From Nitrospirota bacterium (lineage in GTDB: Bacteria > Nitrospirota > JACRHJ01): a DNA stretch of 64,000 bases. A program made the position numbers and the translations under genes. The notes beneath the pieces are model-generated. The model saw nothing but the letters and a program-made list of their open reading frames with translations. It was not told the DNA's origin and did no database searches. Shown one piece after another: positions 4,556 through 37,283 of the stretch. How positions within the stretch are numbered: the stretch's first letter is position 1; every line of letters starts with the position of its first letter. The stretch is from contig CAWJRJ010000011.1 of the NCBI GenBank assembly GCA_963845245.1, positions 1 to 64,000 on the forward strand, read 5' to 3'.

Positions 4556-5636
4556 ATGAAACATTATGGAAAAATTGATGGATTAAGATTTATAGCAATA
4601 GCTCTGGTTTTAGTTCATCATTTTAGCTATTCAATTGGTAGAAATTTTACTATTGGATACTATGGTGTTGATTTATTTTTTGTAATTAGTGGATTTCTGA
4701 TTACCTTAATTTTATGTAAATCTAAAGGAAACTTTAAAAGTGCGTATAAAAACTTTATTGGAAGAAGAACTTTGAGGATTTTCCCTATCTATTACTTAAC
4801 GGTCTTGATACTTTATCTTTTAAATCTGGAAGTAGTTAGAAATTATTTACTTACTATTTTAACATATACATTTAATTATACAATTGCTTATAACAAACTT
4901 CCATTAACACCTATCAGTCATTTTTGGTCGTTATGTGTTGAAGAACAATTTTATCTTTTTTGGCCCTTCATTGTGCTCCCTTTGAGAAATAATTACAGAT
5001 ACTTAGTTTGGGCTATAATTACAATTTCAATATTTAGCTTTTCTCAGTTGGCAATAGGTTATATAAGTTGGATGAAACCATATTATTATCTTCATCTGTT
5101 TACAAGAATGGGTTCGCTGGGATTAGGCGCTTTAGCAGCAATGTTGCGTTATTACCAATAATCTGCCAATCAAATTACTAGAAGATAAATTTTTTGAATA
5201 TCTAATATTTTTAATTTTAATCTATTCTTTGTTTGATGATTCTCAACTTAAATATTTAGCATTTTCATTTTGTTCACTCTATTTTGTGCTCAAATCTGTT
5301 CATTCAGGTTTTAATTTAGGATTTATTAATTTTATCCTTGAAAACAAAACAATTAGATTTATTGGTACAATTTCATACGGGATATACATTTATCATCTGC
5401 CGTTAGGATATTACTTTTCAAAATATATATTCGATCCCATTTGGTTAAATAATGATTTCTGGAATTATTTCGATTCTCATCATTTGAGTCACTTAAGAAT
5501 ATTTTATTTGAATAAGTGGCTCATTCAAATTCCATTGTATAGTACACTAAGTATTCTTATTGCACTTATTTCGTACAAATATATAGAATCACCTATTCTC
5601 AGGTTAAAGAATAAGTTTTTCAGCCGGGAATTTTAA
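4556..5636 (+). CDS. Acyltransferase family 3 (OafA/YrhL-like), frameshift near 5160
   Basis: 'IDGLRFIA', 'GVDLFFVISGFLI', 'HFWSLCVEEQFY' and 'ISYGIYIYH', split over two ORFs. Confidence 0.88.
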
Positions 5637-5669: not shown

Positions 5670-6428
5670 CTATTGAAAAAACATTAACCGTCCTTTTCCA
5701 CAAGTAGCATCACCCCAAAAACCAAAGAAATAGTTCACTTCTACCATTAATTTTAATGTAAATGGGTTAGTACTTGAATTAAAGGTACCTGTTGGATTAT
5801 AAACCCCATCATTCAATACATAATAATTATCATTAATCACAAAATCGCCAAAAGTATAACTTCCTCTCAGGCCAAGGTTAACCTGAAGACGATCACCATT
5901 GACAACTGCAAAACCTAATCCACTTGTCAGACTGGTAAATTTTTCACTGAAATTAGCCATATAATCACCATTTTCGGAAGTAAATGATCCATCCTTGGAA
6001 TTTTCGACACTGGCAGATTTTAAGGTTGAAAACTGAGGGCCAACTTCAAAATAAAAACCATAACTGCTTATGTATCTTAAAGAAACAAAATAATCAAGCG
6101 ATTTAAATTTTTGTATCTTCGAATAAGTTGCTACGCCATCATCAATATTATACTCCTGGCTAAATCCAGAGAACAAAGGCTCAAAATTGATTCCAATATG
6201 ATCGCCATAGGTTATGCCAAAGCGTCCTCCATATGAATATGATGGGCTCAAGAAACTGATTGATACGTTGTTATCAGCCATAACATCACTATTAAATAGC
6301 AATGATCCACCATATCCTCCTTTTATTGCCAGACTAAGCCACTTAATCTCTCCATTTCCTCTGCGGTGCTGACCAATAGCCGAACCAATAAAAACCATGC
6401 ATAAGGCAATTAATATAAGTTTTTTCAT
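5670..6428 (-). CDS. Outer-membrane beta-barrel protein (Bacteroidota type)
   Basis: Signal peptide and alternating Gly/aromatic beta-strand pattern ('GFYFEVGPQFSTL', 'LQVNLGLRGSY'). Confidence 0.7.
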   Translation of the reverse strand: MKKLILIALCMVFIGSAIGQHRRGNGEIKWLSLAIKGGYGGSLLFNSDVMADNNVSISFLSPSYSYGGRFGITYGDHIGINFEPLFSGFSQEYNIDDGVATYSKIQKFKSLDYFVSLRYISSYGFYFEVGPQFSTLKSASVENSKDGSFTSENGDYMANFSEKFTSLTSGLGFAVVNGDRLQVNLGLRGSYTFGDFVINDNYYVLNDGVYNPTGTFNSSTNPFTLKLMVEVNYFFGFWGDATCGKGRLMFFQ

Positions 6429-23343: not shown

Positions 23344-23411
23344 TACTCCGGTTATGTCCACTAAATTCTCGGCATAGCCGGGCTTCGTTCACGTTTGTTT
23401 TTGTGGAGGTA

Positions 23412-24579
23412 ATGATGCAGGACGGTTCTGTTTCAGTTGGTCAGCTAGTCGCATCAAGGGAGCAGGTAGCACCCTCGGTCCGGGTAAAGGATGTGGCGGA
23501 AAGGTTTTTCCAGGAGCAGAACCTGGACGCGATAGCCGTAGTAGATTGCCGTGAACCGGTCGCGCTTGTCGCAAGGAGCAAACTTCTTTTCTCCCTGTTC
23601 AGGAGATTCGGGTTCGAGCTATACGAAAGAAAACCTATACTGAGGATCGCAGACACCGAGCCGCTTCTCGTGCATGAGGGTGAGAGCATCGACGTCGCCC
23701 TTGATAAAGCTCTGTCACGGCCATTTCAGGACATCTATGACGACATAGTGGTCGTCGACGACAACTCCTTCTTTGTCGGGCTGCTCTCTGTCAAAGGGAT
23801 AGTCATAGAGCAGAGCAACGCTCTGGCCAACAGCATGGTCCAAAAGGAGCTTGCAAACGAACGGGCCAAGGAACTTGAGAAGGTAAGCAAGATAAAATCC
23901 CAGTTCATCGCAAACGTGACACACGAACTTCAGGGCCCCAGTAAACGCCATCATCGGGCTTGCCGACCTTATGAGGATATCCTGCGAAAAGGGTTATACA
24001 GAACAGGTAAACGACAGGCTTTCTCTCCTGCTTTCAAGCGCGGTAAGCCTCAGGGCTATCATCACAAACATCCTTGACCTCTCAAAGGTGGAGGCCGGAA
24101 AGATGGAGGTGATAGTCGAGCGTTTCGACGCCGTGTCCGTAATAAAGGAGGTCGTGGAGACTACACGTATATTAATAGGCAACAAACGGGTCGAGGTTAC
24201 TGCCTCGTTCAGCGTGGAGCCTCTCTTGATCGAGAGCGACCCTGTCAAGTTCCGTCAGATACTCAACAACCTTTTAAGCAACGCAGCCAAGTTCACCGAG
24301 GCAGGATGCATCACTGTCAACGCTTCAAATACGAGCGGTGTTCTATCCGTTTCTGTCAGCGACACTGGGATAGGCATACGGGAGGAAGACATGGGACGGC
24401 TGTTCTCAGCCTTCACCCAGATCGAAGACGCCCAAACAAAGCGATATGAAGGCACTGGACTCGGCCTCACCATAACGAGACACCTTGTGGACCTCCTCGG
24501 AGGCCAGGTTTCTCTTCAGAGTATCTTCATGAGGGGGACTACATTCACGGTCAACCTGCCACTTGCTATAAACAGATAG
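23412..24579 (+). CDS. Cytoplasmic CBS-pair sensor histidine kinase (frameshift near 23933)
   Basis: Tandem CBS domains, H-box 'FIANVTHELR.P', 'NLLSNAAKFT', 'DTGIGI' and 'GTGLGL'. Confidence 0.88.
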
Positions 24580-24587
24580 GGGGAACT

Positions 24588-24968
24588 ATGGCGGTTAGCA
24601 AAAAAAAGATAGTACTGATAGACGACGATGTGAATCTTCTTGAGACCACCAAGGCCATACTTGAGGATGAAGGATACTCCGTCTATGTCTATAGCAAGGC
24701 TCTAGGGTCCTTAAACAGGATCAGGGAGGACGAACCGGACCTGATCATGCTGGACATGAACATGCCTGCGCTTTCCGGCGAGGGGCTGGCAAAGTTACTC
24801 CGTTCATACATCGGCACGCGGGACATACCTATCGTCTTTTATTCGTCGAACGACGAGGACACCATGAGAAAGGCCGTATCTGAACACGGCGTTAGAGGAT
24901 ATATATGTAAGGGCAACCTCTATGACTTAAGGAGCAAGGTCCACGTTTACATGCATAAGCAGCAGTAA
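24588..24968 (+). CDS. Single-domain response regulator
   Basis: 'LIDDD', 'LIMLDMNMP' and 'YICKG'. Confidence 0.9.
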   Translation: MAVSKKKIVLIDDDVNLLETTKAILEDEGYSVYVYSKALGSLNRIREDEPDLIMLDMNMPALSGEGLAKLLRSYIGTRDIPIVFYSSNDEDTMRKAVSEHGVRGYICKGNLYDLRSKVHVYMHKQQ

Positions 24969-25053: not shown

Positions 25054-26211
25054 TTATGCGACGGCCGATTCGGCCTCATCCCTGCAAGGGGACAAAAATG
25101 AATCCTTGCCGATTATATATCTGTCTCCCCTCCACTCGACCTTGTTCGAAAATACAGGGACAAACCAGGCCATACCGATAAGAACGTCCTTTAACGGCGA
25201 AAGAAGGTAGAGGGCCGGGTTCGCTCCCACCTTTACCAGCCTGCCCATTAAATAATCGCCGGCCGCCTTCAAGGAGAAGGCCGCAAGAGGCAAAAGAAAC
25301 GTCATGCGTGAAGGACCGAGAACCAGCAGCGGGACCAACGACATGCAGACTGGGTTTCCTATAAGCTCTAATAAATACGCCGCACTGCCTATCTGCCACC
25401 GCAGCTTCCCCCACCTGATATGCCTTGCGAGGAACTGCCGCACGTGCCAGGATTCGTTGATGGTGTTGATGATGTGGTTTGACAGTACGACTTTCTTGCC
25501 TAGCTGCTTCATCTTCCGCCCTAATATATAATCCTCTGCAAGGTGGTCTTTTACCTCCCCAAACCCTCCAAGTTCCTCAAGATGTTCTCTCCTGATAAGC
25601 ATGGACTTGCCGACTACGCATGGCGATTTCAAAAACCTGTCGAGAAAACAAACGCCGCCGACTACAAAGGTGTTGAGGTGGAGGTTCTCAAGGGCCGAGC
25701 CGATGCTCCTGCCTCCGATACCCCTGATCAGGCTGCTGACAAGCCCCACCTCTGGGTCTTCCATATGCTTCACTAGCTCTTTTAAATATTCTTTTTCCAC
25801 CCTGACGTTGCTGTCGCTTATCAGAATGAAACCATATCTTGATGCCCTGTAGGCCGGCACGAGGGTGTCTACCTTGGGGTTCAGCCCCTCCCCGCACCAC
25901 TCGGCTACGATTGAAATATCCCTCGCCGGGAACTGCTCCTTTATCCTCTGGGCGACACGGTAGGCCGGGTCGTCAAAAGACCTCAGGGCAAATATAATCT
26001 CGTATTCCGGGTAGTCCTGACGGCAGAAGCTCTCAAGGTTTTCAAACAGGCTGTCGTCCAGCCCCTTCAGAGGCTTCAGTATGCTGACCGGCGGCATATA
26101 AAGCCCCGCCACTAAGTTTGGCTGCGAGAAACAGCTTCGCACAGCCGCAACCTGTAAATAATAAATTACCAGCCCAAAAGCTGTCAGCAGGCTGAATACA
26201 ACAAAAATCAT
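25054..26211 (-). CDS. Ceramide glucosyltransferase / HpnI-like glycosyltransferase (GT21-like)
   Basis: 'VSILKPLKG', 'GLNPKV', 'ISDSN', 'HLAEDY' and 'RHIRW'; N- and C-terminal TM helices. Confidence 0.88.
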   Translation of the reverse strand: MIFVVFSLLTAFGLVIYYLQVAAVRSCFSQPNLVAGLYMPPVSILKPLKGLDDSLFENLESFCRQDYPEYEIIFALRSFDDPAYRVAQRIKEQFPARDISIVAEWCGEGLNPKVDTLVPAYRASRYGFILISDSNVRVEKEYLKELVKHMEDPEVGLVSSLIRGIGGRSIGSALENLHLNTFVVGGVCFLDRFLKSPCVVGKSMLIRREHLEELGGFGEVKDHLAEDYILGRKMKQLGKKVVLSNHIINTINESWHVRQFLARHIRWGKLRWQIGSAAYLLELIGNPVCMSLVPLLVLGPSRMTFLLPLAAFSLKAAGDYLMGRLVKVGANPALYLLSPLKDVLIGMAWFVPVFSNKVEWRGDRYIIGKDSFLSPCRDEAESAVA

Positions 26212-26912
26212 GTCTGGTTACACCTCCTGAATAGCGTTATTGACACCCCTTCGTTCCTTTTTATGCATTTCTTTATTGCATCCAGTTTCTTCTCGCAGTT
26301 AAGGAGCGTCTTCCAGGAATAAATATGCCTTGGTTTGTGGAAGTCGCTGTTTGCGATGTATGGATATTTCTTAAGGCTTATCACATTGAAGACGTCGTCG
26401 CGGTTCGCTATCTCCCAGGCGTCTATGTACTTGGCGTATTTCTCCCTGTTGTTCCACAGAAACAGGGTGTCAATGAACGTCGTTTCAGAGGTGTGGTGCG
26501 GGTGACATGCAACGGTCAAGGCCCCTTGGCGTTTTGCCTCCAGGAATATCTTCTCGTAGTCCCAGCAGGCGAAGATGAACTCCTTGATGTCAAGGACGAG
26601 CAGGTGCGCCGCCCTTTTTGACAAGAAAGAGTTCTTCGATATCTCCACGCCCGGTATGACAAGCATCCCGTATTTTTCCCGCGCCCGCTCGGCCTCTTCC
26701 CTGACGTGAGCAAGGTATCCGTCAAAGTTGTCCTTGTTTATGGTAAATTTCAAGCGGTGGGCGAGCTTCCCCATAAGGTTGTCGCCGTTGACTACGTGGT
26801 CCGTAATGCTGATCACGTCGAACCCGGCCTGGCCGTAGAGGTCAATTACTTTCCGCAGCCCTACCGAGCCGTCGGAATAGTTTGTGTGGATATGAAAGTC
26901 GCACAAAAGCAT
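26208..26912 (-). CDS. PHP-domain metallophosphoesterase
   Basis: 'DFHIHTNYSDG', 'ITDH', 'PGVEI', 'ACHPH' and 'NSDFH'. Overlaps the GT start (ATGA). Confidence 0.9.
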   Translation of the reverse strand: MLLCDFHIHTNYSDGSVGLRKVIDLYGQAGFDVISITDHVVNGDNLMGKLAHRLKFTINKDNFDGYLAHVREEAERAREKYGMLVIPGVEISKNSFLSKRAAHLLVLDIKEFIFACWDYEKIFLEAKRQGALTVACHPHHTSETTFIDTLFLWNNREKYAKYIDAWEIANRDDVFNVISLKKYPYIANSDFHKPRHIYSWKTLLNCEKKLDAIKKCIKRNEGVSITLFRRCNQT

Positions 26913-26933
26913 AGCTGTTTAAACCTTTTATCC

Positions 26934-27062
26934 TTAATAGTACGGGCATGAAACGTGTTTTGAAGTCCTGCAAAACTCTCTTATGTTATGCAGGTCGGGG
27001 TTGTTCGGAGCCCTGTAAGATCTGCATATGAACAAGAAGTTGTATTTAAGGAATGGACACAT
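26934..27062 (-). CDS. Cys/His microprotein, paralog 4 (42 aa, absent from the ORF track)
   Basis: MCPFLKYNFLFICRSYRAPNNPDLHNIREFCRTSKHVSCPYY*. AGGTG RBS; same motif as the three upstream ORFs. Confidence 0.8.
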   Translation of the reverse strand: MCPFLKYNFLFICRSYRAPNNPDLHNIREFCRTSKHVSCPYY

Positions 27063-27071
27063 TTTGCACCT

Positions 27072-27290
27072 CTATTCTTCCCAAAGTCCGAAATGGAAAA
27101 TTCTGCCCTGTTTTTTCTGGCCCATGAAATACGGGCAGCCTATGTGATGGATTTTTTCACAGAATTTGCTAAGCCTTGCGAGGCTGGGGATGTATGGGAT
27201 GTCGTCGGACGTACAGGTGAAAAGGTACCCCTTGACCAGGTAGGGGCACCTGTCCGGCCCCTTAAATGCTGTAGGAGAAGAGTTCGACAT
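27072..27290 (-). CDS. Cys/His microprotein, paralog 3
   Basis: CPYLVKGYLFTC-x17-CEKIHHIGCPYF. Confidence 0.8.
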   Translation of the reverse strand: MSNSSPTAFKGPDRCPYLVKGYLFTCTSDDIPYIPSLARLSKFCEKIHHIGCPYFMGQKKQGRIFHFGLWEE

Positions 27291-27435
27291 TTTCCAGGAA
27301 CGCCTTATAGAAACTACAGTCTGTGTGTGCCTGGCTCAGACAGCAACCTGCCAGATTGTGTACGCTGGGCACCAGCCACTTGTCTTTGGATACGCAGTAC
27401 AAACGGTCATGCAGGGTCAGGTTCGGGCAGTTCAT
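27262..27435 (-). CDS. Cys/His microprotein, paralog 2
   Basis: MNCPNLTLHDRLYC-x17-CLSQAHTDCSFY. GAGGAGG RBS. Confidence 0.82.
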   Translation of the reverse strand: MNCPNLTLHDRLYCVSKDKWLVPSVHNLAGCCLSQAHTDCSFYKAFLENVELFSYSI

Positions 27436-27452
27436 ATTTTCCTCCTCTGAAA

Positions 27453-27644
27453 TCATCCCAGACCTCCAGCGCTCAAAGATTCCTGAAATTGCGCCTGCCT
27501 CTTTTGGTAGCCCAGATAGAACGGGCAGATGCTGTGCAGGCGTTCCTTGCAGTATTCCATCAACTGGTACTGGCTCGGGCGGTAAGAATCATCGACTGTT
27601 GAGCAGTGGAACGCATCCTTCTTTACCAGGTTCGGACATCTCAT
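27453..27644 (-). CDS. Cys/His microprotein, paralog 1
   Basis: MRCPNLVKKDAFHC-x17-CKERLHSICPFY. AGAGG RBS. Confidence 0.82.
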   Translation of the reverse strand: MRCPNLVKKDAFHCSTVDDSYRPSQYQLMEYCKERLHSICPFYLGYQKRQAQFQESLSAGGLG

Positions 27645-27684
27645 AATCAAACCTCTTTTATTATTGTTTTCTTTCACTGTAGCA

Positions 27685-27740
27685 ATTAAAACATACAAAT
27701 GTTGTGATCATATTAAGGGCTCGTTACATTTGCGTTAAGA
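27685..27740 (-). promoter_or_regulatory. Four in-phase Pho-box-like half-sites plus -10
   Basis: Minus strand TCTTAAC, ATGTAAC, CCTTAAT and TCACAAC at exact 11-bp period (27740, 27729, 27718, 27707), then 10 bp, then TTTAAT. Confidence 0.65.
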
Positions 27741-27831
27741 CGCCCAGAGGCATTTTTTACAATTTGATTAGTCTGCGAGGATGCAATCGGGAATAATGAG
27801 GGAACTTAAACGGACCGGATTATGGTAGTTA

Positions 27832-28035
27832 TCAGGGCTTATGGCCGTGAGCAGGCTTGTGTTTTCTTGAAGACGCCTTTTCGGGCTCGAAGACTTCCTT
27901 CCCCAACAGGCATATGGGGCATAGCCAGTCGTCCGGCAGGTCTTCAAAAGAGGTGCCCGGGGCTACGCCGTGTTCCGGGTCGCCGACCTCTGGGTCATAT
28001 ACGTATTTGCAGACGGTACACACCCACCTTTGCAT
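27832..28035 (-). CDS. Rubredoxin with basic/His C-terminal extension
   Basis: '[17 protein letters not shown]...[16 protein letters not shown]'. Confidence 0.93.
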
Positions 28036-28037
28036 AT

Positions 28038-28379
28038 CTATTTCTCCTTGCCGGGCCTGTACAACAAGACCTTTGCGCGCTCCACCGTGACAAGCCCCTC
28101 CACCATCATCCGGTCGAGGTCCGGCAGGAACGCCTCTATCTTCTCGGGCGAGTCCACTATTTCGATGACAATCGGCAAGTCCTCCGACAGCCTTAGCACC
28201 TTGGCGGTATGTACCCGGCTGTGGGCCCCATAGCCCATCAGCCCGCGGAATACCGTTGCGCCACCAAGGTTCTGCCTTCTGGCCTCTTTGACTATGGCCT
28301 CAAACAGCGGCACGCCTTCGTATCTGTCGGACTCGCCTATGAATATCCTTAAAAGTTCAGCCTCTTCCGGAAGTTTCAT
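28038..28379 (-). CDS. DUF190 (PII-like) protein
   Basis: '[10 protein letters not shown]', '[12 protein letters not shown]' and '[13 protein letters not shown]'; typical crcB neighbour. Confidence 0.92.
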
Positions 28380-28404
28380 GTCATCCCCTTTTTACAGGCC
28401 ATTA

Positions 28405-28782
28405 TTACAGGACCCTGGCAATCCATACCCCGGACACTATCGCGGCGAAACCCAGTACGCAGTTCGCCGCAACATTTAAAAAGGCCAGCATGTACTGGCT
28501 GTCCCTGACATAATTCATCGTCTCGAACGCAAATGTGGAAAAAGTGGTAAATGCACCCATAAAGCCGACAAGTAGGACCGTGCGCGTAAGAACAGATATC
28601 GCCATCCTCTCCTCGGCAAGCGCCCATACCAGGCCGAACAGAAGGCAGCCGATGACGTTGACCGCCAGTGTGCCGTAGGCGAAATCCGCACCGAACATGC
28701 GGTGCATAAACCCGGAAAGCCAGTAACGGGACAGGGTCCCGACAGTTCCTGCAACGGCAATCAATATAAGCTTGGACCACAC
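28405..28782 (-). CDS. crcB: Fluoride efflux channel CrcB/Fluc
   Basis: 'GTLAVNVIG' and 'GFMGAFTTFSTF'; 4 TM helices. Confidence 0.95.
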   Translation of the reverse strand: MWSKLILIAVAGTVGTLSRYWLSGFMHRMFGADFAYGTLAVNVIGCLLFGLVWALAEERMAISVLTRTVLLVGFMGAFTTFSTFAFETMNYVRDSQYMLAFLNVAANCVLGFAAIVSGVWIARVL

Positions 28783-28791
28783 GATGTCTTA

Positions 28792-30091
28792 TTACTCCAG
28801 ATGTAAGGACTGCAAGGCAAATGAGATATTGGCGGCAAGAGAGTCCAGCAAGCCCGTCTCTTCCTTGTCGAAGAAACCCGGCTCGGTGGAGTAGACAGCA
28901 AGGGCACCGACCACTTTGCTGCCCACGCTCAACGGGAACCCGGCATTCGAGCGGTATCCGCGACTCATGGCCGTCTCCACGCCAAAGGCCCATCCGCTCG
29001 TCATTTGCTATATCGTTGCAGATAAAATGCGCGCCGGTGCGTATCGCCGTGCCAACAGGCCCCCTGCCCTCGGGAACATCGTCGACTGATATTTTAATGT
29101 CTTTCAGATAACCATCTTCGCATCCTGCGTATGCAACGGGCTTTACTTGGCGGCCCTCTCCGGTAATACCTATCCACGCCATATGGAAAGAACCTCTGTC
29201 AACTGCAGTATCGCAGACCTTACTGAACAGGTATTCCGTGTTTGGAGCCCTGATTATCACATTGTCGATGCCGGTTATCACGCTGTATAGCCGGTTCAGC
29301 CTCGCTACCCTCTCATCGGCCCGCTTGTGCTCGGTCACGTCCCTGACGACCTCTATCCCGGCAATTATTTCTCCATCCTGGTCCATTAGCGGCGAAGCCG
29401 TGACCTCGATATGCAGCGTGCCTGTTTCTGAAACCGTGGACCTCTGCATAGTGTGCACGCGGCAGTCCTCGAATGATTTTATAACGGGGCAGTCCTTGCA
29501 TGCCTCATCCAGCCGCTCGAAGGCGCGGTAGCAATATTCGCCGATATGCGAGCCTATCAGGTTGCGGTGCGCTTTGTTCTGATAGAGTACCCTTAGGTCT
29601 TTGTCCTGGATACTGATGCCCTCGCCGATATTTTCAAGTATTGCCTCCAGCTTGTTTTTCTCGTGATAAAGGGCCAATTCGGCATCCCTTTTAAACTTCT
29701 CGGAACTCCTGAGCTTTACCGACTGCTCTACGGAATTGATAATCTTTGCATAATAGGCAAACTCTTGTATATCTTTCGTAAAGTAATCGTCGGCACCATT
29801 CTTGAAAGCCTCCCTGGCAACCGCCTCGTTACCCTGGCCGGTGACAAAAATAAACGGTACGTCGTTGTGTTTGCTCCTGAGACTTTTTAGAAGCTGCATG
29901 CCGTTCATTTCCGGCATCTGGTAATCGGAGAGTATACAGTCAACGTGATGGTCTTGCAGGTAGTTGAGGCAGTCCCGACCGCTTTTCAGGACCGTGATGT
30001 AAAAGTGCGGTGCTTCCTTGGAAAGCCGCATTTTCGTCAGGGTGGCGAGGTCAAGCTCGTCATCTACTATTAGTACCTTTAAAGGTCCCAT
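28792..30091 (-). CDS. REC-PAS-GAF signalling protein without output domain (frameshift near 28975)
   Basis: REC 'ILSDYQMP', PAS, and GAF 'MAWIG...PEGRGP'. The corrected frame ends 'LAANISFALQSLHLE*'. Confidence 0.8.
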
Positions 30092-36238: not shown

Positions 36239-37066
36239 TTATTTCGCGTTCGGGTTAAAAAGCGCGTTGCCATACTTATCCTTGAAGCCGCCAATCAACT
36301 TCTGGCCAGCGGGACCGGTAACGTAGCTTATGAAGTCCTTTGCCTCCCTGTAATGAGCGTGGGGGAACTTCGCAGGGTTCACGGCCATCACCGAGTACTG
36401 GTTATACAGGGCCGTGTCGCCGGCATACAGCAAGGTAATATTCTTCAGGGTGTCCTTCATGGCAAGCCAGGTCGCCCTGTCCGAGAGGGTATACGCGCCC
36501 TTCTCATCCGTTATGCGAAGGGCCGCCTCCATGCTCTGGCCCACCGACAGATAACCCTTAAGCACCTTGATGTCTACTCCAGCCGCCTTCCACATCTTCT
36601 TCTCGCGGGCGTCCGTGCCGGACTCATCACCACGTGAAACGAATATTACACCGGCATCGGACATCTTCTTGAATGCGGCCGAGGCTGAAGCCGCTTTTCT
36701 CACCCCCGCCGGGTCCGACGCCGGTCCCATGACCACGAAGTCGTTATACATCACCAGGTGCCGGTCCACACCAAACCCTTCGGCCACAAACTTATCCTCC
36801 TTCTCCTTGTCGTGCACGAGCAGGATGTCCGCATCGCCGCGCCTGGCGATCTCTATCGCCTTGCCGGTGCCGACCGCGATCACGTCGATCTTGATGTCCT
36901 TCAGCTTCGTCCATTTGTAGTAGGCTGGTATAAGCACGTCAAAAAGCCCGGTGTTCTGGGTTGAAGTGGTCGATGCGAGTATGACCCTCGTCTCTGCATT
37001 GGAGTTTGGAACGAAAATGAAAGTGACCGCCACTAATGCGAGTAAAAACCTTAATAACCTGGACAT
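36239..37066 (-). CDS. tupA: Tungstate ABC transporter substrate-binding protein
   Basis: 'LASTTSTQNTGL', 'VGTGKA', 'MYNDFV', 'FVSRGDESGT', 'YTLSDRATW' and 'NQYSV'. Confidence 0.92.
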   Translation of the reverse strand: MSRLLRFLLALVAVTFIFVPNSNAETRVILASTTSTQNTGLFDVLIPAYYKWTKLKDIKIDVIAVGTGKAIEIARRGDADILLVHDKEKEDKFVAEGFGVDRHLVMYNDFVVMGPASDPAGVRKAASASAAFKKMSDAGVIFVSRGDESGTDAREKKMWKAAGVDIKVLKGYLSVGQSMEAALRITDEKGAYTLSDRATWLAMKDTLKNITLLYAGDTALYNQYSVMAVNPAKFPHAHYREAKDFISYVTGPAGQKLIGGFKDKYGNALFNPNAK

Positions 37067-37113: not shown

Positions 37114-37152
37114 AAAAAAGCCGATTACCCGCTTTGAGACAAGGGTATCGGC
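37114..37152 (-). terminator. Leader terminator (riboswitch expression platform)
   Basis: Minus strand GCCGATACCC...GGGTAATCGGC followed by TTTTTT, between the aptamer and tupA. Confidence 0.8.
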
Positions 37153-37160
37153 CCGCACGC

Positions 37161-37272
37161 AAGCCTCCTTTCCAAGATAACGGGAGACCATGCCTTTTCA
37201 GACATGACCCTAAGCGGCCGGGGTCCATGGCCTTGTGAGGGGCTTTAGGGCGGTCCGGCTTCGGAGAATATT
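37161..37272 (-). ncRNA. Moco RNA motif, P3-less (tungsten cofactor, Tuco) variant
   Basis: CUCCGA, P2 with CCUAAAG/CAUGG, UAGGGU-P4(GAAA loop)-CUCCCG, then UGGAAAGGAG; upstream of tupA. Confidence 0.88.
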
Positions 37273-37283
37273 AAGTTCTGAGT

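Follow-up and report, generated by a model that had tools for sequence, protein, structure and literature searches.

What do four very small, cysteine-rich proteins do when their genes are lined up ahead of genes for a phosphoesterase and a glycosyltransferase? The question is raised by positions 26934–27644 (minus strand) of a 64,000-nucleotide (nt) stretch of a Nitrospirota genome (contig CAWJRJ010000011.1, positions 1 to 64,000, referred to below as the window), in which ORF calling finds four small open reading frames (ORFs) in succession, of 63, 57, 72, and 42 amino acids (aa), here called microproteins A, B, C, and D. The answer proposed below is that they are small regulators induced by phosphate starvation, which bind a metal and partner proteins, a reading on which we stand evenly divided. 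The strongest functional clue is a promoter element resembling a phosphate (Pho) box, missed by the initial annotation of the locus.

Small proteins are routinely missed in annotation, and the 42-aa D, absent from the ORF track of the initial annotation, is an example. Here, hundreds of sequence clusters without a Pfam or NCBIfam model are tied by a promoter motif and by their neighbourhood to the phosphate-starvation response, and the Nitrospirota concerned come from wetland, sediment, and groundwater samples.

The array of four genes

The array comprises the following genes, all on the minus strand:
27453–27644 including the stop codon (27456–27644 without it), minus strand: microprotein A, 63 aa, a Cys4 domain with a basic C-terminal helix
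27262–27435 including the stop codon (27265–27435 without it), minus strand: microprotein B, 57 aa from the second ATG, with a conserved hydrophobic C-terminal tail F-S-Y-S-[IVL]
27072–27290 including the stop codon (27075–27290 without it), minus strand: microprotein C, 72 aa, with a 13-residue N-terminal extension and a conserved tail F-x-F-G-L-W-E
26934–27062 including the stop codon (26937–27062 without it), minus strand: microprotein D, 42 aa, a bare Cys4 domain ending in C-P-Y-Y

The ATG of C sits 29 nt inside the end of B, the N-terminal extension of C overlapping B. In the alignment of A–D the columns M1, C3, P4, L6, C14, P23, C32, H37, and C40 are invariant, and all four proteins share the spacing C-x10-C-x17-C-x4-H-x2-C followed by [PS]-aromatic-aromatic, exactly as described in the initial annotation; B has a fifth cysteine adjoining Cys3. 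Compared with A, the other three are only 31–37% identical. Shine-Dalgarno-like GAGG/GGAGG runs are read 5–8 nt upstream of the start codons of A, B, and D, and no clear run of this type precedes the start of C, in agreement with the three clear ribosome-binding sites noted earlier. A search of the organism's own genome finds no copies of the family other than these four.

Selection and age of the duplications

The same A-B-C-D array is present on a metagenome contig whose DNA is 84% identical (L161), and a second contig, 87% identical (L162), carries C, D, and a B truncated by the contig end, with the gene for the PHP-domain phosphoesterase behind them. Pooled over A–D, the comparison with L161 gives 6 non-synonymous and 43 synonymous changes, i.e., a ratio of non-synonymous to synonymous substitution rates (dN/dS) of 0.03; gene by gene the changes are 1/14 in A, 1/11 in B, 3/8 in C, and 1/10 in D (dN/dS of 0.01, 0.02, 0.09, and 0.02, respectively), and the PHP gene gives 0.01. 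Against L162 the values are 0.04 for B, 0.14 for C, and 0.02 for D, the row for A having been dropped because L162 has no A and a paralogue got aligned in its place. Orthologues of A and B in two genomes of another genus give 0.08 and 0.14; deeper comparisons between genera are mostly saturated (dS above 1.4 or undefined). An ORF of 204 aa on the plus strand over the array (26988–27602) was not kept, since L161 has no antisense ORF of at least 150 aa there. Profile relatives in other genomes, found down to an E-value of 1e-19, and the recurrence of the array on L161 and L162 with almost only synonymous change argue that the array is not a product of chance, and it is nearly certain from these comparisons that the four ORFs are real genes under purifying selection.

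The initial annotation saw in the array an old, selected expansion and proposed dN/dS as a check; both the selection, as given above, and the age are borne out. Every paralogue has a nearer orthologue in other genomes than any sibling in the window, the closest ones elsewhere being 90% and 69% identical for A, 47% for B, 64% and 56% for C, and 98% and 56% for D; the orthologues of C are P0003 (64%) and P0007, and those of D are P0002 (98%), P0084, and P0013 (the latter two 55–56%). The window copies still have a single 19-nt stretch of DNA in common, which indicates that the duplications are old. The paralogues can also be told by their ends: a tail like F-S-Y-S-[IVL], of the B type, is common to the window, the genomes G005, G002, and G001, the loci L152, L145, and L143, and the cluster representatives P0004, P0041, and P0147; the C-type proteins have an ending like F-G-L-W-E, and in the D type the stop codon lies right behind the last Cys motif. 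Relatives from the same genome family carry two copies, of the A and B types (G005, G001, G006, and G008), or three (G002), and four copies are seen in this genome and on L161 only, plus L162 as far as that contig reaches.

Two paralogues show departures of their own. The middle copy of G002 (L145, 5283–5471) has lost P23 and H37 and matches the profile with just E 1e-5; this paralogue may be in decay or have been put to another use. Window B is 26–37% identical to the B orthologues of other genera, which are 49–58% identical among themselves, and this low identity despite strong purifying selection against L161 and L162 suggests a past burst of change in B of this lineage.

The Cys4 family and its fold

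A profile search retrieves 364 cluster representatives at E ≤ 1e-3 out of 1.84 billion searched, and nearly all of the 150 representatives listed are 42–99 residues long. The genome-by-genome census covered Nitrospirota, and restriction of the family to this phylum is not claimed. Of 301 genomes sampled throughout Nitrospirota, 107 have a match, as do 17 of 41 near relatives, which answers the homologue search proposed with the initial annotation. The spread is uneven by genome family: 9/11 genomes in f1, 48/64 in f5, 16/23 in f11, 3/50 in f9, 0/28 in f10, and 0/25 in f17, with 9/11 in the window organism's own family. In the ESM Atlas only clusters of 'hypothetical protein' are found, most commonly from Nitrospirota, and 'hypothetical protein' is likewise the source annotation of the family members. 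Four positions, C14, P23, C32, and C40, never vary in an alignment of 135 sequences, and at least 90% of these keep C3, L6, and Y21.

The motif could not be assigned to a named family in the initial annotation, and it matches none in Pfam, NCBIfam, PADLOC, or the PDB sequences. A–D come near no cut-off in the first three (best 14.4 bits, cut-off 25), seven representatives with no fused domain (P0112, P0129, P0099, P0024, P0012, P0043, and P0014) have no Pfam match at E ≤ 0.1, and the family profile run against all PDB sequences gives one chance-level row (E 1.4). Foldseek finds nothing in the PDB at E ≤ 0.001 and a VIA-align structural scan of 48,161 chains reaches a best Z of 3.5, both being comparisons in which small proteins seldom score, so that the fold may yet be a known one. 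Full-text literature searching found no description of the family. That these proteins form one family is nearly certain, and this family is without name, profile, or solved relative.

The AlphaFold2 model of A, built on the 135 sequences and of fair confidence (mean pLDDT 80.6, pTM 0.57), has a short beta-hairpin (residues 6–8 and 12–15) and three helices (25–32, 35–39, and 41–59). The domain of about 45 residues, with its four invariant cysteines, probably holds one metal centre, be it zinc, iron, or a small Fe-S cluster.

Weak extra matches occur at L111 4631–4825 (plus strand) and L120 736–927 (minus strand), with E 1e-6 and 2e-4; they differ in the N-terminal Cys spacing, have the conserved ending behind the last Cys, and may represent a distant sister subfamily. 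Three ORFs linked to pst genes (L106 around 4960–4990, L110 around 5010–5040, and L153 around 1990–2010) lack an ATG, GTG, or TTG in the vicinity of their conserved N-terminus and have an in-frame ATT or ATC 5 nt behind a GGAGG run, which suggests that translation starts at a non-canonical codon or is coupled to the short HMA_2-like ORF that comes before.

Operon and Pho-box-like promoter

Downstream of D lie two further genes, and upstream of A a candidate control element:
26208–26912, minus strand: PHP-domain phosphoesterase gene, fifth gene of the operon, with a Pfam PHP match and an NCBIfam match to the CehA/McbA metallohydrolase domain below cut-off
25054–26211, minus strand: GT21-family glycosyltransferase gene, sixth and last gene of the operon, matching Pfam Glyco_transf_21 with 152 bits
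27701–27739, minus strand: Pho-box-like element, four hexamers (TTAAC/GTAAC/TTAAT/ACAAC type) every 11 nt with a -10-like hexamer within about 10 nt

The end of D is 21 nt from the PHP gene and the PHP and GT21 genes overlap by 4 nt; by this layout the six genes look like one operon. The best NCBIfam match of the GT21 protein is the hopanoid enzyme HpnI (269 bits, under the cut-off of 310).

In seven loci where a microprotein gene stands ahead of pstS, three to four hexamers of the TTAAC/GTAAC/TTAAT type recur every 11 nt, followed by a -10-like box, and the 188-nt region upstream of A has the same hexamer pattern as these pstS spacers. A 29-nt weight matrix covering three hexamers in 11-nt phase was learned by expectation-maximisation from the spacers upstream of pstS in the seven other genomes, the window sequence not being used. 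On both strands of the organism's own 2.88-Mb genome (5,755,530 positions, mean score −40, standard deviation 10.7) the top score of the matrix, 22.0, falls at 27738 (minus strand), 94 nt upstream of the ATG of A; the fourth hexamer (27706–27701) and the -10-like hexamer behind it were read by eye. The element is thus a phased direct-repeat box near the -10, of the type found at the pst promoters of related organisms.

The site is conserved on L161 (score 19.7) though the sequence farther upstream has diverged. The array promoters of five relatives have best scores of 12.5, 12.9, 7.4, 5.3, and 8.0, where the own-genome null gives an expectation of 0.002–0.021 per 300 nt, and in L143, L146, and L148 the site lies in a spacer common to the array and a divergent PhoB-like gene. 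Sites scoring 14.7–24.7 precede pairs of an HMA_2 gene and a microprotein gene in L106, L107, L109, L110, L154, and L155, and are likewise found ahead of the second L154 copy, the L130 copy, and the porin gene behind the L145 array. The latter, a Porin_5 gene of G002 (L145, 5796–7169), has its own box-like site at 5728–5767 (score 17.8) and may code for a phosphate-starvation porin. The second-best match of the matrix in the genome is on contig C22 near 41107 (L159, around 3108), with 21.9 and, on the opposite strand, 17.4; it lies between a DUF2232 membrane-protein gene and ORFs without a family. A regular expression for three phased hexamers, which hits seven genome sites with uninformative genes downstream, was not counted, having been designed from the array's own promoter.

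Related boxes are described in the parts of the literature drawn on here: 7-bp repeats with 4-bp spacers in E. coli and a (c/t)GT(n)AC repeat for PhoB in Desulfovibrio vulgaris (PMC3333781), and, in cyanobacteria, 8-bp CTTAACCT repeats, three or more in number, joined by 3-bp linkers (PMC1906773). As presented in these excerpts, the PhoB and SphR boxes are, like the element found here, direct repeats in 11-nt phase just upstream of the -10, and the TTAAC/GTAAC hexamers are similar to CTTAACCT of cyanobacteria and (c/t)GT(n)AC of Desulfovibrio (PMC1906773, PMC3333781); in contrast to them, the Nitrospirota motif is known from computation alone. Since a motif derived from pstS promoters has its genome-best match ahead of A, the array-PHP-GT21 operon is predicted, with good likelihood, to be under Pho control. 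For the prediction of Pho regulons in Nitrospirota, the matrix has a value of its own.

The association with PHP and GT21 at the head of an operon, pointed out in the initial annotation, is correct for this locus and limited to its family-level clade. Among 80 kept Thermodesulfovibrionales-type PHP loci (PHP identity 69–84%, two of the loci stemming from cultured or isolate genomes) the array lies directly upstream in four, the closest ones; in 18 a single copy lies elsewhere in the flanks, and the flanks of 58 contain no copy. An A/B pair stands directly 5' of PHP in the four closest loci and in G005. The PHP-GT21 link is therefore recent and local, and the link to phosphate genes broader.

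Gene neighbourhoods and proposed role

Copy number and neighbours, whose tabulation the initial annotation had recommended, were recorded for 56 loci of about 10 kb each, hand-picked from the genome matches to spread over genera and long contigs; with crude ORF calls, the two nearest ORFs on each side and those overlapping the match were scanned against Pfam. Nine of the 56, from genome families f11, f3, and f2, adjoin pstS/pstC or phoU/pstB: pstS/pstC lies directly downstream in L106, L107, L110, L111, L125, L134, and L153, and phoU-pstB is convergent in L154 and L155. Five further array loci from the window organism's own family have GT21 (4/5), a PhoBR-like response regulator and/or kinase (4/5), PsiE (one), and a porin (one). 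GT21 and a PhoB-like response regulator occur together in L143, L146, and L148, with a kinase as well in L143 and L146; L152 has GT21 and PsiE, and L145 a PhoR-like kinase and the porin. The best match of the L143 response regulator is PhoB (272.7 bits, cut-off 296), and that of the L143 kinase is PnpS, followed by WalK and PhoR, all just under their cut-offs.

Neighbours containing a receiver (REC) domain, i.e., stand-alone REC, REC-LuxR, REC-OmpR, and REC-sigma54 activators, are present in 21 of the 56 loci, sigma-70 factors in 9, HMA_2 and/or DUF5132 proteins in 8, and chemoreceptors in 4. Five f5 genomes have 3–7 sigma genes with region 1.2 and 42–150 REC matches each, and by these numbers the adjacency of sigma and pst genes is far above the level of gene density and that of REC about threefold above it. 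Moreover, three of the 150 representatives listed are fusions with REC, in both domain orders: REC follows the Cys4 domain in P0064 and P0071, and in P0106 it comes first, with Cys4 last. The fusions are recurrent, P0064 being found on three contigs, P0106 on six, and P0071 with three member sequences. The 'regulators or adaptors' of the initial annotation thus stand by context, that is, by the neighbours, the REC fusions, and the Pho-box-like promoter.

The following explanation is proposed. When phosphate runs out, a PhoB-type regulator would turn on all six genes of the operon. The PHP and GT21 enzymes would remodel lipids towards a phosphorus-free glycolipid, by analogy with PlcP-Agt operons. 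The microproteins would fold round one metal centre and act as small protein-binding 'connectors': the Cys4 core would be the unchanging scaffold, and separate partners would be addressed by the surfaces and C-terminal tails, which diverge among A–D. Receiver-domain proteins, PhoR/PhoB-type systems, and a sigma-70 paralogue are possible partners; through the connectors the signal of phosphate starvation would be relayed to other circuits or returned as feedback. Read in this way, the REC fusions indicate that a response regulator can have the Cys4 domain as its effector part. The circuits touched would be those of the neighbouring stand-alone REC proteins, kinases, and sigma factors, and four copies with different tails would point to four targets. 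The connector mechanism is held tentatively, at somewhat less than even confidence.

In a bolder form, the Cys4 domain would be a new Nitrospirota signalling module, an output domain controlled by REC in trans and, in the rare fusions, in cis, docking either on PhoR-type kinases or on a sigma-70 paralogue dedicated to it; the four PhoB-induced copies would reach four targets, making up a metal- or redox-gated connector without a counterpart among known families. In that form the proposal is doubtful.

Several observations weigh against the explanation. The histidine of the motif is often kept and in some family members replaced (135-sequence alignment). Most PHP-GT21 operons, the 58 of 80 mentioned above, have no microproteins in their flanks. 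Other top matrix sites in the genome precede genes without an evident phosphate role. In the organism's own genome, which is 90% complete, tblastn at E ≤ 1e-10 finds no PstS, PstC, PhoU, PsiE, HMA_2, or DUF5132, and PstB and PhoB/PhoR queries give generic ABC and two-component matches with no clear phoB, with the result that in this organism neither the regulator nor reference Pho genes can be pointed out. The sequencing runs listed for positions 26200–27850 include none of RNA, and the shares in DNA runs are at most 0.10. The 56 loci being hand-picked and many of them from related genomes, the tallies are not independent, and about ten show none of the pst/pho, sigma, REC, chemoreceptor, and HMA_2/DUF5132 types, the contexts without a signalling or Pho gene including L121, L124, L129, L135, L140–L142, and L149–L151. 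Finally, the REC fusions are rare, and a word-based search with the 135-sequence alignment, itself weak evidence, found no longer, fused forms at E ≤ 1e-5.

Alternative explanations

The microproteins might instead be redox sensors with Fe-S or Zn that, in the manner of WhiB or ZAS proteins, tune transcription directly by binding a sigma factor, not via two-component proteins. The sigma-70 neighbours (regions 1.2–4) of nine loci speak for it, the more so as a genome has just 3–7 such genes: seven of these loci, in f5, have a sigma-70 paralogue of 302–374 aa (L105, L112, L117, L123, L126, with region 4 undetected, L128, and L137), and two, in f27, a factor of 510–524 aa (L138 and L139). In all five f5 genomes checked, four of them chosen for that reason, one sigma gene adjoins a microprotein gene, and P0081 reads as a sigma-70 gene run, by frameshift, into the following microprotein gene. 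The four invariant cysteines, the multiple paralogues, and the anaerobic hosts would also suit such sensors. Nevertheless, there is no sigma gene near the array in the scanned part of the window, the Cys spacing is unlike the WhiB and ZAS motifs with no Pfam match to either, and the sigma adjacency is confined to f5 and f27; we regard this alternative as unlikely. A complex prediction for the L105 sigma-70 paralogue and its neighbouring microprotein scored 0.01 against a mark of 0.32, which is evidence neither way. The sigma-70/microprotein arrangement is in any case a conserved cassette, and upstream of it six of the nine sigma loci code for a kinase and for a regulator of the REC-LuxR or REC-sigma54 type; L105 shows just the regulator and, at 4638–5024, a stand-alone REC.

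A role in metal handling, as chaperone, buffer, or sensor when phosphate or polyphosphate pools collapse, together with HMA_2/DUF5132 proteins and a P-type ATPase, is likewise improbable. It would account for the HMA_2 and/or DUF5132 neighbours of eight loci, for the short HMA_2-like ORF directly 5' of the microprotein gene in L106, L107, L109, and L110, for the P-type cation ATPase adjoining the pair in L144, and for the four invariant cysteines. However, one site per 42–72 residues makes a poor buffer, no HMA_2 or DUF5132 gene is present in the window or its genome, and neither the fusions to REC nor the neighbouring sigma and kinase genes would be explained.

That the microproteins assist the PHP phosphoesterase or the GT21 glycosyltransferase, as accessory subunits or in assembly, is quite improbable. 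The shared operon with its 21 nt from D to PHP and the A/B pair ahead of PHP in the four closest loci and G005 would fit, but 58 of the 80 loci with a PHP 69–84% identical have no member in the flanks, 18 more have it elsewhere in the flanks, and most family members are far from any PHP or GT21 gene.

Precursors of ribosomally made, modified or secreted peptides, which tandem small Cys-rich ORFs do resemble, are hardly credible here, there being no gene for a maturase, protease, or exporter either within the operon or in the set of 28 ORFs scanned (15.1–40.7 kb), conservation spanning the whole peptide and domain and not a leader alone, the model showing a compact fold, and REC fusions existing.

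Surroundings of the array in the window

Upstream of the array, beyond the 188-nt gap, lie genes for rubredoxin, DUF190, and CrcB, and downstream, in convergent orientation, a histidine kinase gene and a stand-alone REC gene (24588–24968). The kinase gene (23403–24579, plus strand) is read as two overlapping ORFs, 23403–24077 and 23971–24579, of which the second alone has a Pfam match (HATPase_c); a frameshift or an assembly error may be responsible. An ORF of 571 aa with REC, PAS, and GAF domains (28376–30091, minus strand) continues over crcB (28405–28782) and the DUF190 gene in another frame. Its GAF match ends at residue 371, and an ORF of 70 aa at 28792–29004 may be the rest of the GAF domain, which would imply a frameshift near 29000. 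The sole Rfam match in the window is a Moco riboswitch at 37149–37278 (minus strand, 51.7 bits), directly 5' of a PBP_like_2 gene (36242–37066, minus strand), which by its position behind the riboswitch probably codes for a molybdate/tungstate binding protein rather than PstS.

Comparison with known systems

WhiB-like and ZAS proteins are small, have three or four metal-binding Cys/His residues and many paralogues, and act on sigma-70-family factors. The WhiB motif is C-x(n)-C-x2-C-x5-C and the ZAS anti-sigma motif H-x3-C-x2-C. The microproteins differ from both in ligand spacing and have neither a profile match nor a structural match (best Z 3.5). A–D were rejected as WhiB-like proteins on their spacing, C-x10-C-x17-C-x7-C, and the lack of a Pfam match, and as ZAS anti-sigma factors for want of a C-x2-C pair and of a sigma gene in the scanned part of the window. 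The two C-x2-C knuckles of rubredoxins and zinc-ribbon Cys4 proteins are also missing from A–D, which have no rubredoxin match, unlike the true rubredoxin encoded next to them (27832–28035, 83.9 bits).

The DUF1127 small proteins of Agrobacterium and E. coli (YjiS) bind PhoR (PMC12501420). As described in the part of that source drawn on here, they are, like the microproteins, very small and present as several paralogues per genome, and they affect phosphate signalling through protein-protein contact, which for the microproteins is a proposal; the same part does not describe the proteobacterial proteins as heading a Pho-box operon (PMC12501420). The two groups have no sequence relation, A–D giving no DUF1127 profile match at E ≤ 10, and DUF1127 has no Cys4 site.

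The PlcP-Agt operons of marine bacteria code for a phospholipase C and a glycosyltransferase, have a predicted Pho box, and are induced by phosphorus deficiency (PMC4796936). According to the portion of that paper used here, the resemblance is limited to the downstream half of the window operon, where a glycosyltransferase gene comes after a phosphoesterase gene; the enzyme families are other than PHP and GT21, and no microprotein genes are described in that portion (PMC4796936). The lipid product is not fixed by the analogy, since the best match of the GT21 protein, HpnI, is below cut-off.

IraP is induced by phosphate starvation. With IraM and IraD it belongs to the anti-adaptors that act on RssB (PMC3877760), and, in the passages of that source used here, these small stress-induced proteins dock on a receiver-domain protein and thereby control a sigma-70-family factor (PMC3877760). 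They differ from the microproteins in showing no homology to them, in having no cysteines, and in their restriction to Gammaproteobacteria. To our knowledge, no Ira anti-adaptor is fused to REC. The three kinds of genes of the Ira system, for a small protein, a REC protein, and a sigma-70 factor, occur together in the f5 loci. Small stress-induced regulators and Cys4 metal sites are themselves of known kinds; should the microproteins be connectors, a link of phosphate sensing to sigma factors and two-component systems would be shown, and a new metal-binding fold would be added to the known small-protein regulators.

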